DNA of 64,000 bases from a virus (taxonomy: Duplodnaviria > Caudoviricetes), in the IMG/VR virus record IMGVR_UViG_3300021979_000003, positions 32,001-96,000 of that record, one strand, 5' to 3'. The stretch's first letter is position 1. Each line of letters begins with the position of its first letter. The notes beneath the pieces are model-generated. The model was not told where the DNA came from and ran no database searches. It was given only the letters and a program-made list of their open reading frames with translations. Below are positions 3,184 through 30,596 of this stretch, in pieces. A program made the position numbers and the translations under genes.

Positions 3184-3633
3184 TTAGTTTCCAACTCTTA
3201 ACATTTTATTATTAAGATTCACAATTTCCTGATACATTTCAGAATTAGTCAGTTTAAAATGGTTATGAGCCTTTTGCGTCTCAAACACAATATCAATAAG
3301 CATGTATCGGTGTCCAGAAGTACCGACAAAAAAAGAACTATATTGCTTTATGTCGTACACCAGTCTAACGTCTTGACCTTTAACAAAAAAGAAGTTTTCA
3401 ATGAGAAAGTCATACACACCATTGGTGACAATATCAAGATGAAACCTCGTGTATTCTTTGTCTCCACTATCAAATTCACTCATATTAAAATCAATATGTT
3501 TGTCATGAAGAACATGGCTTATTGGAATCATATCATCTGTATCTAGATCATAATGAGTGACAATGTACTTGTAAATCTCAGAAATACTAAATGCGACATT
3601 TACTGAATATCTTTTATAGTCTTTTTTTTCCAT
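3184..3633 (-). CDS. hypothetical protein, paralog of 3614..4126
   Basis: Start re-called at MEKKDY (AAGGA RBS); C-terminal F-x-T...N-x-FK-x-TN-xx-MY shared with neighbour. Confidence 0.7.
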   Translation of the reverse strand: MEKKDYKRYSVNVAFSISEIYKYIVTHYDLDTDDMIPISHVLHDKHIDFNMSEFDSGDKEYTRFHLDIVTNGVYDFLIENFFFVKGQDVRLVYDIKQYSSFFVGTSGHRYMLIDIVFETQKAHNHFKLTNSEMYQEIVNLNNKMLRVGN

Positions 3634-4126
3634 AATATTCCTTGTCTTTTCCCTCACACATCTTACGGTATGCTTCCATGTCTTTTTCAAAATCTATAAG
3701 ATGATGATACATTTTTTGATTAGTGATTTTGAACTTATTGAAAGACTCTTTGGTTAAAAACGATAATGCACATACACAATATAAATGAGTGAGTCGTAAA
3801 AATTCACGATCCGCACTACAATAAAATTCCAATACTATATCATTTGAGGTATCAGGATCATATTCTATTTCTAAAGAATCGTAGACAATCTTTCTAAATA
3901 CATTTCTTGCTATATTAATGATTTCTGGGTCATAATTCTCAGTTACGTATTTACTATTTCGATCACCAGAACTCAAAACAACATCGTGTGTATTAGTATC
4001 TTCAAAGACATTATAGATTCTTTCAAAGTCTCTGTATGAATAACTATAATTATCAATAATGAATTGAAAAACAGTCTGTAATGATATACTAAGTCTGGGA
4101 TGAAATACTCTGTGTGCTTCTACCAT
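3614..4126 (-). CDS. hypothetical protein, paralog of 3184..3633
   Basis: ORF; shared N- and C-terminal motifs with neighbour. Confidence 0.75.
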   Translation of the reverse strand: MVEAHRVFHPRLSISLQTVFQFIIDNYSYSYRDFERIYNVFEDTNTHDVVLSSGDRNSKYVTENYDPEIINIARNVFRKIVYDSLEIEYDPDTSNDIVLEFYCSADREFLRLTHLYCVCALSFLTKESFNKFKITNQKMYHHLIDFEKDMEAYRKMCEGKDKEYYGKKRL

Positions 4127-4142: not shown

Positions 4143-4228
4143 TGGCACCCCCTGATGGAGTCGAACCATCCACTTTCCGCCCAACGTTATAGTAGGAGTT
4201 TAGAAGACTCCTGTCGGGAACAGGGGGC
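4143..4228 (-). tRNA. non-canonical tRNA-like RNA, anticodon-like loop CU-UCU-AA (Arg AGA), no D-arm, encoded CCA
   Basis: Acceptor GCCCCCT/AGGGGGT-G-CCA; T-arm GATGG-TTCGACT-CCATC; AGGAGT/ACTCCT stem around CTTCTAA. Confidence 0.7.
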
Positions 4229-4240
4229 ATTAAACTATTT

Positions 4241-4447
4241 TCATGTTTCAAAGAAGTAAATACACAAATTTTTGAACTGTGTTTTATTTATCTCTTTGTT
4301 CTTAATCTTGTCGTAGATTTTACCGTAAGTGTGTTCGCTTCGAATATACATTAGGTCATCAATATGGTCTTCAATTTTAACCATATCTTCATCTTTAATC
4401 CACCCATGAGTATATCGACTTTTACGTGCATTCATTATACTACTCAT
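4241..4447 (-). CDS. hypothetical protein
   Basis: ORF in operon. Confidence 0.65.
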   Translation of the reverse strand: MSSIMNARKSRYTHGWIKDEDMVKIEDHIDDLMYIRSEHTYGKIYDKIKNKEINKTQFKNLCIYFFET

Positions 4448-4456
4448 TATACGCCC

Positions 4457-4867
4457 TTACTGATAAATTTCAAACGTTTTCTGATTACCGTTTGCAAAAT
4501 GAATAATTGATTTAACATTATCTGCTAATGCATGATCAGGTGCCATTACAATTTCTTCTTTAGAATAAACAGTAATCTTTTCATCTTCCATTGTAACGGC
4601 TTCATAGATATTGTCAACTACTGTTTTAAATACAAATACAGTGTAGTCTTCACCAAAAATATAACCAAATAACGTTGGCTCGATATCAAGATTGCATTCT
4701 TCTTTAGCTTCGCGGATCATTGCGGCGACAATGGTTTCATCTTGCTCAACTTTTCCACCCACGAAGGTAGTTTTACCTTTTAAAAACTCAGGGCGATTTT
4801 TACTAATCATCACGTATTCTTCATGTGTGGGATCAGTAATAACACTCATTACATAGCTTATAGACAT
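4457..4867 (-). CDS. Nudix hydrolase
   Basis: Intact Nudix box GGKVEQDETIVAAMIREAKEECNL. Confidence 0.9.
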   Translation of the reverse strand: MSISYVMSVITDPTHEEYVMISKNRPEFLKGKTTFVGGKVEQDETIVAAMIREAKEECNLDIEPTLFGYIFGEDYTVFVFKTVVDNIYEAVTMEDEKITVYSKEEIVMAPDHALADNVKSIIHFANGNQKTFEIYQ

Positions 4868-4877
4868 TTTATATTCC

Positions 4878-5243
4878 TTATGTTAGAAGCTTCAAGTTTT
4901 TCAAATCATCACCAATGTCATCTTCATGAATTGGACCAATACCCAAACAAGTAACAGTAGGCTCTTTAAAAACAGTAAATCCCGCATCTTTGATGAAAGC
5001 CACGCCACATACATGATAATACGATTTCAGAAGTTCCTCAAGCTCTTCTTCAGTATCTACGACTAAGGTTATCTTTTTAGCGTGTTTGCTATCTATATAG
5101 GCTTGTGCAGCTTCTGGGAAGCGGCGTTGTGCGTCCCACCATGCATGTAGATATGCGTGACCTGCTTGAGAACAAAGTTTACCACGGTTGCCGTTCATTT
5201 TTTTCAATGCTTCTTTACACACTATATCATAAATTTTATACAT
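4878..5243 (-). CDS. pth2: peptidyl-tRNA hydrolase type 2
   Basis: GKLCSQAGHA, KKITL, DAGFT...TVTCLGIGP motifs of the PTH2 family. Confidence 0.9.
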   Translation of the reverse strand: MYKIYDIVCKEALKKMNGNRGKLCSQAGHAYLHAWWDAQRRFPEAAQAYIDSKHAKKITLVVDTEEELEELLKSYYHVCGVAFIKDAGFTVFKEPTVTCLGIGPIHEDDIGDDLKNLKLLT

Positions 5244-30357: not shown

Positions 30358-30362
30358 TTAAT

Positions 30363-30596
30363 TTACCTTTTTGTAAACCTGAATTTTTGAGGGTTACGAT
30401 TTTTAATAGCAGACAGTAGACGCTTTTCCAACAAAGCAGCCGCTTCTTCCCCGTACTTTTCTTCAATCTCTTCAATTAAATTAATACTAGAATTAATTAC
30501 GTGATCTGCTCGTGTTTTAATAACAGCTTCCGAAAGTCGGCTACGGCCATTATCCATTAAGCAATCTAAGATTCCGCTACTCATGTTTCTTCCCAA
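30363..30596 (-). CDS. hypothetical protein
   Basis: ORF in operon. Confidence 0.7.
   Translation of the reverse strand: MGRNMSSGILDCLMDNGRSRLSEAVIKTRADHVINSSINLIEEIEEKYGEEAAALLEKRLLSAIKNRNPQKFRFTKR

Follow-up and report, generated by a model that had tools for sequence, protein, structure and literature searches.

To our knowledge, tRNAs outside animal mitochondria have been taken to be cloverleaves, an assumption shared by gene finders, Rfam and censuses of phage tRNAs. In an ordinary tRNA, the 5' strand of the D stem is followed by a D loop that carries G18 and G19 and, in arginine tRNAs, A20. The identity elements of arginine tRNAs for bacterial ArgRS are C35, U36 or G36, and A20. Several described systems come close to the RNA reported here. 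The (8/4) allo-tRNAs and tRNA-Sec, some of which occur in phages, retain both a D hairpin and a genuine variable-arm hairpin, together with serine identity (Mukai et al., PMC5389517; RF01852). D-armless tRNA-Ser(UCU/GCU) molecules of animal mitochondria, such as those of Ascaris suum, have a short flexible connector in place of the D arm as well as reduced T arms (PMC7609411). The defence-evading phage tRNAs of PMC10264068 and PMC11555353, to judge from titles and abstracts, involve changes in the anticodon loop or the supply of tRNA, not a changed fold. Full-text literature searches, together with searches for terms within the allo-tRNA paper (PMC5389517) and a 2020 review of non-canonical tRNAs, returned no description of the layout presented below.

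The gene lies on the minus strand of a 64,000-nt stretch of DNA (the window) from the genome of an uncultured giant marine phage. It is 86 nt long and runs from 4228 to 4143, with RNA position 1 at 4228 and position 86 at 4143. The RNA has an acceptor stem, N73, a TΨC-type T loop and a 7-nt anticodon loop with U33 and a purine at position 37. No D-arm hairpin is present between positions 9 and 26 of the window gene; 8 nt separate the acceptor and anticodon stems, with 9 to 10 nt in the place of the D arm, and 23 nt extend from the anticodon stem to the T stem. Every detail of the original prediction, which listed an acceptor stem with G1·U72, a T arm, CCA and a stem-loop bearing CUUCUAA but no D arm, is present at these positions. 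On the basis of sequence analysis, we consider the element to be a working elongator tRNA-Arg(UCU) with a rewired core, with a probability of roughly 0.65; it would read AGA and probably AGG as well.

The 5' strand of the acceptor stem, GCCCCCUG (8 nt, 4221–4228), pairs with its 3' strand, CAGGGGGU (4147–4154), as established by covariation in the family; in the window the pairing is GCCCCCU(G) with (C)AGGGGGU and includes G1·U72. A 2-nt linker, UU (4219–4220; 1 or 2 nt across the family), leads to CCCGAC (4213–4218), the 5' strand of a helix designated H1. This strand is contiguous with the anticodon stem and forms all six possible pairs with GUUGGG (4180–4185), which would play the role of a D-stem strand. 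The anticodon arm (4194–4212), also delineated by covariation, consists of a 6-bp stem, AGGAGU/ACUCCU, and the loop CUUCUAA (4206–4200) with the anticodon UCU at 4204–4202. The segment 3' of the anticodon stem, ACUAUAAC (4186–4193), begins with ACU (4193–4191), the 5' strand of a second helix, H2. Downstream of GUUGGG, the RNA reads C-GGA-A-AGU-GG and then enters the T arm. The C and the conserved GGA (4176–4179) form a D-loop-like motif and are the proposed equivalents of G18, G19 and A20, whereas AGU (4172–4174) is the 3' strand of H2. The T arm (4155–4169), AUGG/UUCGACU/CCAU, contains 4 bp, with a fifth possible between G4170 and C4154. The RNA ends with the discriminator G73 and an encoded CCA (4143–4146, with CCA at 4145–4143).

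Tools that search for tRNAs did not recognize this element. ARAGORN called no tRNA and no tmRNA in the window, and Rfam at its gathering thresholds gave no match, tmRNA included; a tmRNA or other known tRNA-like structure was rejected on these results. The Rfam tRNA model RF00005 did not match the element even at an E value of 10, and the sole match in a permissive search was to tRNA-Sec, at 28.7 bits and below the cutoff of 47. Both tools miss the element, and ARAGORN calls just one of 76 family members. Folding of the single sequence gave a minimum free energy z-score of −1.9, with 8 of 200 shuffled sequences folding equally well. Given that the lone sequence folds barely better than its shuffles, the case rests on its relatives.

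To describe those relatives, we built a covariance model, R1, from 12 members distant from the window copy, leaving the window sequence out. The window copy scored 65.1 bits against R1 (E value 8.6e-17), showing that the element is more than a product of chance, and it was the sole strong R1 match across the 239-kb genome record. R1 identified 77 distinct members at E < 1e-9 among the collected loci, and at least 77 occur in viral contigs. A blastn search against records of cultured phages yielded one relative, in Nitrincola phage 1M3-16 (NC_024217, about 4474–4563), where the stretch is unannotated and stops 3 nt short of the tRNA-Met gene of that phage; the wider family was found by pattern scans of IMG/VR. 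The same pattern occurs in 78 stretches in IMG/VR versus 12 in prokaryotes (one genome for each of 185,579 species). True members account for 11 of the 12 prokaryotic matches, mostly on contigs of metagenome-assembled genomes (MAGs), and one comes from an isolate, Spirabiliibacterium pneumoniae HPA106.

The nearest relative of the window gene, at locus L012 (identical to L015 in this stretch), shows 90.6% identity over 96 nt, although the adjoining DNA cannot be aligned. Differences between the two genes in the stems are compensatory, with an acceptor C-G pair becoming U-A and a T-stem A-U pair becoming C-G, and the first acceptor pair is kept as G1·U72 changes to A1-U72. Across the family alignment, 97.7% of 1770 cells contain standard pairs, compared with 71% when partners are shuffled and 44 to 51% after sliding, and both sides have changed in 20 of 23 pairs. 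All eight acceptor pairs covary (97.9% paired), as do five of the six pairs in the anticodon stem and two of the four in the T stem (99% paired). Most members (67 of 77) can form an eighth acceptor pair, whereas just five can form a fifth T-stem pair, and the family branch is therefore 8/4.

The absence of a D hairpin, and the failure of ARAGORN and Rfam to find the gene, would also be expected if an ordinary tRNA-Arg(UCU) gene had lost its D arm and were decaying as a pseudogene. We regard such an origin as highly improbable. The 77 distinct members share one layout and show compensatory changes in every helix, all the helices of the window copy are intact, the identity with L012 persists where the surrounding sequence has diverged beyond alignment, and the gene stands in for the ordinary one in tRNA clusters, as described below. 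By sequence comparison, then, the element is neither a lone oddity nor a decaying gene, and the scores and covariation bear out the proposal of a real, non-cloverleaf, tRNA-like RNA. Covariation among homologues, which the original prediction had named as a check, thus points away from decay.

Some members and possible relatives differ in arrangement. Rewired genes occur as tandem pairs separated by 1 to 6 nt in L171 (6592–6418, minus strand; anticodons ACG and UCU) and in L195 (1449–1627; CCU and UCU), and the ACG copy in L171 carries neither GGA nor CCA. In a 'type B' subfamily of about 82 nt, built on the same principle, the enclosing helix has 4 bp (CUCA/UGAG) and the anticodon stem 5 bp, the branch is 7/5, the D-loop-like stretch is longer (UAAYUGGA) and leads into GUAUG, and the T loop is UUCGAGU; in IMG/VR this subfamily was seen in L028, L033–L035, L055, L056, L062, L065, L072, L075, L079, L084, L088–L090, L095, L100, L104, L119, L134 and L143. 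Weak relatives scoring 30 to 34 bits are found on Verrucomicrobiota MAG contigs in L200 (1603–1691, minus strand) and L202 (2137–2226, minus strand). These share the enclosing-helix layout, but their anticodon loop is UGU (threonine-type), their T loop is UGCGAYU and GGA is lacking; no ordinary tRNA-Thr was called in either locus. The fold is therefore not strictly tied to arginine.

The central feature of the rewired layout is H1. The pairing of CCCGAC with GTTGGG had been proposed as an extended helix outside the cloverleaf, and it is supported by covariation in all five modelled pairs, with 98.7% of cells paired. RNAalifold applied to the family alignment predicted the acceptor, anticodon and T stems; H1 was not predicted. 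Given that the pair counts come from an alignment fitted to the model, we retested H1 by position alone, comparing two 5-nt segments, one terminating 6 nt ahead of the anticodon loop and the other 2 nt ahead of GGA. The two were fully paired in 71 of 76 members, versus a mean of 17 (maximum of 27) with permuted partners, and 33 strand combinations were represented. H2, which joins the nucleotides immediately after the anticodon stem to those lying 1 or 2 nt past GGA, was counted with a flexible register. At least 2 bp were formed in 74 of 76 members (22 strand combinations), with a mean of 2.72 bp versus 1.06 (maximum of 1.47) after permutation. In the window, the H2 strands are ACU and AGU at the positions given above. 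H2 crosses H1, and the core is therefore a pseudoknot.

The original prediction had held that the ArgRS determinant A20 is missing together with the D loop. This is probably wrong, given that GGA follows within 0 to 3 nt of the H1 3' strand in 56 of the 57 parsed members, the exception having GGU, in a scan that required the anticodon loop and T arm alone and did not demand GGA. From the geometry, the H1 strand continuous with the anticodon stem would occupy the place of positions 22 to 25, and the strand behind the arm that of positions 10 to 13. By analogy with ordinary arginine tRNAs, GGA would then sit where a displaced G18-G19-A20 is expected, the order of stem strand and then GGA being kept behind the anticodon arm. 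The D-loop-like stretch is very short, and no equivalent of U8-A14 is obvious.

The anticodons conform to arginine identity. A scan with the anticodon left free gave 36 hits, comprising 31 with UCU, three with CCU and the same layout, and two ordinary tRNAs. UCU, CCU and the ACG of the tandem copy in L171 are all arginine anticodons and have in common C35 and U or G at position 36; the main set of the family shows no others. The discriminator is variable among the 77 members (U in 29, G in 29, A in 17 and C in two), and CCA is encoded in 63 of the 77.

Comparison with ordinary tRNA-Arg(UCU), a class I cloverleaf (RF00005), revealed that a 16-nt stretch of the anticodon arm including CUUCUAA is the same in ordinary phage tRNA-Arg(tct) genes called by ARAGORN (L010, L014 and L019–L021). 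The rewired and ordinary genes also share a TΨC-type T loop, a 12-bp acceptor branch, the CCA end, a location within tRNA clusters of phages and, presumably, the task of reading AGA. Unlike the ordinary form, the rewired RNA has no D hairpin, with a D-stem-like helix being formed instead by the strands that flank the anticodon arm; GGA lies behind that arm, an additional pseudoknot helix is present, the branch is 8/4 rather than 7/5, and the window RNA has 86 nt.

The longer acceptor stem, shorter T stem and 6-bp anticodon stem are shared with (8/4) allo-tRNAs and tRNA-Sec, and tRNA-Sec is the best Rfam model for the element, at 28.7 bits, so that the RNA might be a member of one of these described classes. 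We judge this to be very improbable. Membership in tRNA-Sec was rejected because the score falls short of 47, the anticodon is UCU and not UCA, and the 6-bp D hairpin is lacking. With regard to the (8/4) allo-tRNAs, the 8/4 branch is present, but the rewired family has neither the D hairpin nor the variable-arm hairpin, N73 varies and the anticodons are those of arginine. Neither UCU nor an absent D arm is mentioned in the allo-tRNA paper (PMC5389517). The D-armless mitochondrial tRNA-Ser(UCU/GCU) molecules likewise lack a D hairpin, and the UCU anticodon in common is coincidental. In contrast to the mitochondrial forms, the rewired RNA has a canonical T arm, its covarying long-range helix and GGA would rebuild an equivalent of the D arm, and it belongs to a bacterial and phage system in which AGA is read as arginine.

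Two further elements in the collected sequences resemble tRNAs that are not cloverleaves. About 1.6 kb before the start of the window (G000:C1, approximately 30,360–30,430, minus strand) lies a second, smaller tRNA-like gene without a D hairpin; it has a 7-bp acceptor stem, A73, CCA, a T arm (UAGGG/UUUGAAU/CCCUA) and the loop region ACUCUAAAC, contains no GG motif and does not match R1. In Nitrincola phage 1M3-16 (L001, 4640–4480, minus strand), an unannotated non-cloverleaf tRNA-like structure upstream of the rewired gene consists of a 16-nt inverted repeat, TCTTGGAAGGCTCTGG and CCAGAGCCTTCCAAGA, that encloses two T-arm-like hairpins, GGTTCGATTCC and GGTTCAAATCC.

We then asked how the rewired gene is distributed relative to the ordinary one. 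Ordinary tRNA genes are situated within 300 nt of the rewired gene in 27 of 76 members and within 50 nt in 17 of 76, on the same strand wherever listed. Among loci that hold at least 10 ordinary tRNA genes, an ordinary tRNA-Arg(tct) was present in none of the 29 with the rewired gene versus eight of the 11 without it (Fisher's exact test, p = 2e-6). A rewired-type match and a normal tRNA-Arg(tct) were found together in three smaller loci. Five MAG loci analysed with ARAGORN contain 4 to 14 ordinary tRNA genes each, with tRNA-Arg(tct) in none. In L199, L202, L205 and L207, on MAG contigs binned as bacterial and ranging in size from 142 kb to 1.28 Mb, the members sit in dense arrays of 13 or 14 tRNA genes per 8 kb that lack a normal tRNA-Arg(tct); these may be prophages, giant phages binned wrongly or chromosomal arrays of tRNA genes. 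In the genome of the window itself, no arginine tRNA is included among the six tRNAs called by ARAGORN; the record is approximately 54% complete, and an ordinary tRNA-Arg(UCU) could therefore be located in the missing part.

This distribution bears on the suggestion that the RNA is a tRNA mimic acting outside translation, as a decoy or sponge for a host tRNA-directed nuclease or for a sensor of uncharged tRNA. Such a role would suit the non-canonical core missed by tRNA finders and an anticodon loop that, as required of a decoy, exactly matches the loop of ordinary tRNA-Arg(UCU), and counteraction of tRNA-targeting defences by phage tRNAs is known (PMC10264068; PMC11555353). A decoy carried alongside a functional tRNA, however, would not predict mutual exclusion with the ordinary gene (0 of 29 versus 8 of 11). 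The 12-bp acceptor branch, T loop, GGA and CCA, all of which are needed for translation, are moreover conserved, and the phage makes heavy use of AGA and AGG. We consider a decoy unlikely, and a decoding tRNA that replaces the ordinary tRNA-Arg(UCU) in clusters fits better than the decoy put forward earlier.

Codon usage provides a further view of the proposed arginine tRNA. AGA accounts for 33% and AGG for 10% of the arginine codons in this genome, or 43% together. When 134 AGA positions were aligned with homologues, they faced CGN codons in 20% of cases and serine codons in 4%, and AGG faced CGN in 29% and serine in 2%. The corresponding values for CGT codons, taken as a reference, were 23% CGN and 2% serine, whereas the genome's own serine codons faced CGN in 1 to 2% and serine in 23 to 29%. 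AGA and AGG thus align like CGT and unlike serine codons, indicating that AGA means arginine here, and a recoding of AGA as serine was rejected on this alignment.

Insertion of serine at AGA had been suggested earlier on the grounds that G73 and a long variable region resemble serine identity, and a tRNA for some other residue than arginine may be considered with it. The window copy does carry G73, its variable position is occupied by 23 nt, and tRNA-Sec, its weak Rfam match, is a substrate of SerRS. The family does not conserve N73, however, the 'variable region' consists of one H1 strand and the GGA linker with no free hairpin arm, and AGA and AGG rarely face serine codons. The alignment with homologues largely refutes such a tRNA, which we now regard as extremely improbable.

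With respect to its neighbourhood, the RNA gene is flanked by two ORFs that share its minus-strand orientation: one of 68 codons, with its stop codon 12 nt upstream, and one of 170 codons, which starts 17 nt downstream. Genes for a PTH2-type peptidyl-tRNA hydrolase (Pfam, E value 1.4e-17) and a NUDIX hydrolase are located just upstream (4457–5243, minus strand). A PTH2 protein with 67% identity is also encoded in L012 (10775–11137), 1.4 kb from the rewired gene of that locus. A scan for consensus elements revealed a sigma-70-like match, TTGAAA-16-TATAAT (11 of 12 positions; 4446–4473, minus strand), approximately 220 nt upstream and ahead of the 68-codon ORF, as well as another at 4617–4590; support for promoters and terminators consists of consensus matches alone, which are not evidence of function.

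The downstream 170-codon ORF (3614–4126) was rejected as a counterpart of the endonuclease that adjoins the rewired gene in other phages (hhalign probability of 0.1%) and had no match in a protein atlas, Pfam or PHROGs. All-against-all clustering of neighbouring ORFs revealed no universal protein partner; only homing-type endonucleases recur, in a minority of loci. Genes of the GIY-YIG and HNH types are common nearby, with a GIY-YIG family found in 12 of 76 loci. A zinc-finger endonuclease-like family of 200 to 270 amino acids with an NH2-terminal Cys/His finger is encoded in nine loci (L073, L081, L097, L130, L137, L149, L150, L153 and L154; alignment A5), lying within 0 to 20 nt of the rewired gene in eight of the nine. 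It matches PHROG families of the type 'endonuclease / Holliday junction resolvase', and Pfam DUF7128 below the cutoff. These associations suggest that the rewired gene has spread with homing cassettes.

Starting from the observed helices, conserved motifs, family membership, replacement of the ordinary gene and codon usage, we infer the following course of transcription, processing, tertiary docking, charging and decoding. The RNA would be transcribed together with its minus-strand neighbours, cut by RNase P and trimmed at the 3' end to the encoded CCA. Its 8-bp acceptor stem would stack on the 4-bp T stem to give 12 bp, as in ordinary tRNAs. H1 would enclose the anticodon arm and extend it coaxially, as the D stem does ordinarily, and the C-GGA would serve as a displaced D loop, with G18 and G19 docking on the T loop and A20 acting as the ArgRS determinant. 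The 3-bp H2 would link the anticodon stem, at its 3' end, with the nucleotides that precede the T stem, completing a pseudoknot core. Host ArgRS may then recognize C35, U36 and the A in GGA and charge the RNA, and the charged RNA would read the many AGA and AGG codons of the phage.

The defence-evading phage tRNAs (PMC10264068; PMC11555353) are likewise phage-borne genes that differ from host tRNAs, and they suggest why the core might have been rewired, with evasion of a tRNA-directed nuclease as a plausible guess. In the broadest form of this reading, we see an even chance that a natural elongator tRNA with a pseudoknot core, in which a D-stem strand and the D loop lie behind the anticodon arm, is accepted by RNase P, ArgRS, EF-Tu and the ribosome of bacteria, and that phages have spread it widely, possibly for escape from, or orthogonality to, a nuclease directed at tRNA, whether that of the host or the phage's own.

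The window gene is thus a candidate AGA- and AGG-decoding tRNA of a phage in which these codons make up 43% of all arginine codons. If this reading is true, the L-shape of tRNA would be reachable through a different chain topology, and tRNA-Arg(UCU) would turn out to be present in many phages whose records show none. The family would then provide a natural test of the demands that RNase P, ArgRS, EF-Tu and the ribosome place on the tRNA core, and orthogonal tRNAs might be built on it as a new scaffold. Protection against tRNA-cleaving defences, should the rewiring confer it, would represent a new counter-defence strategy.
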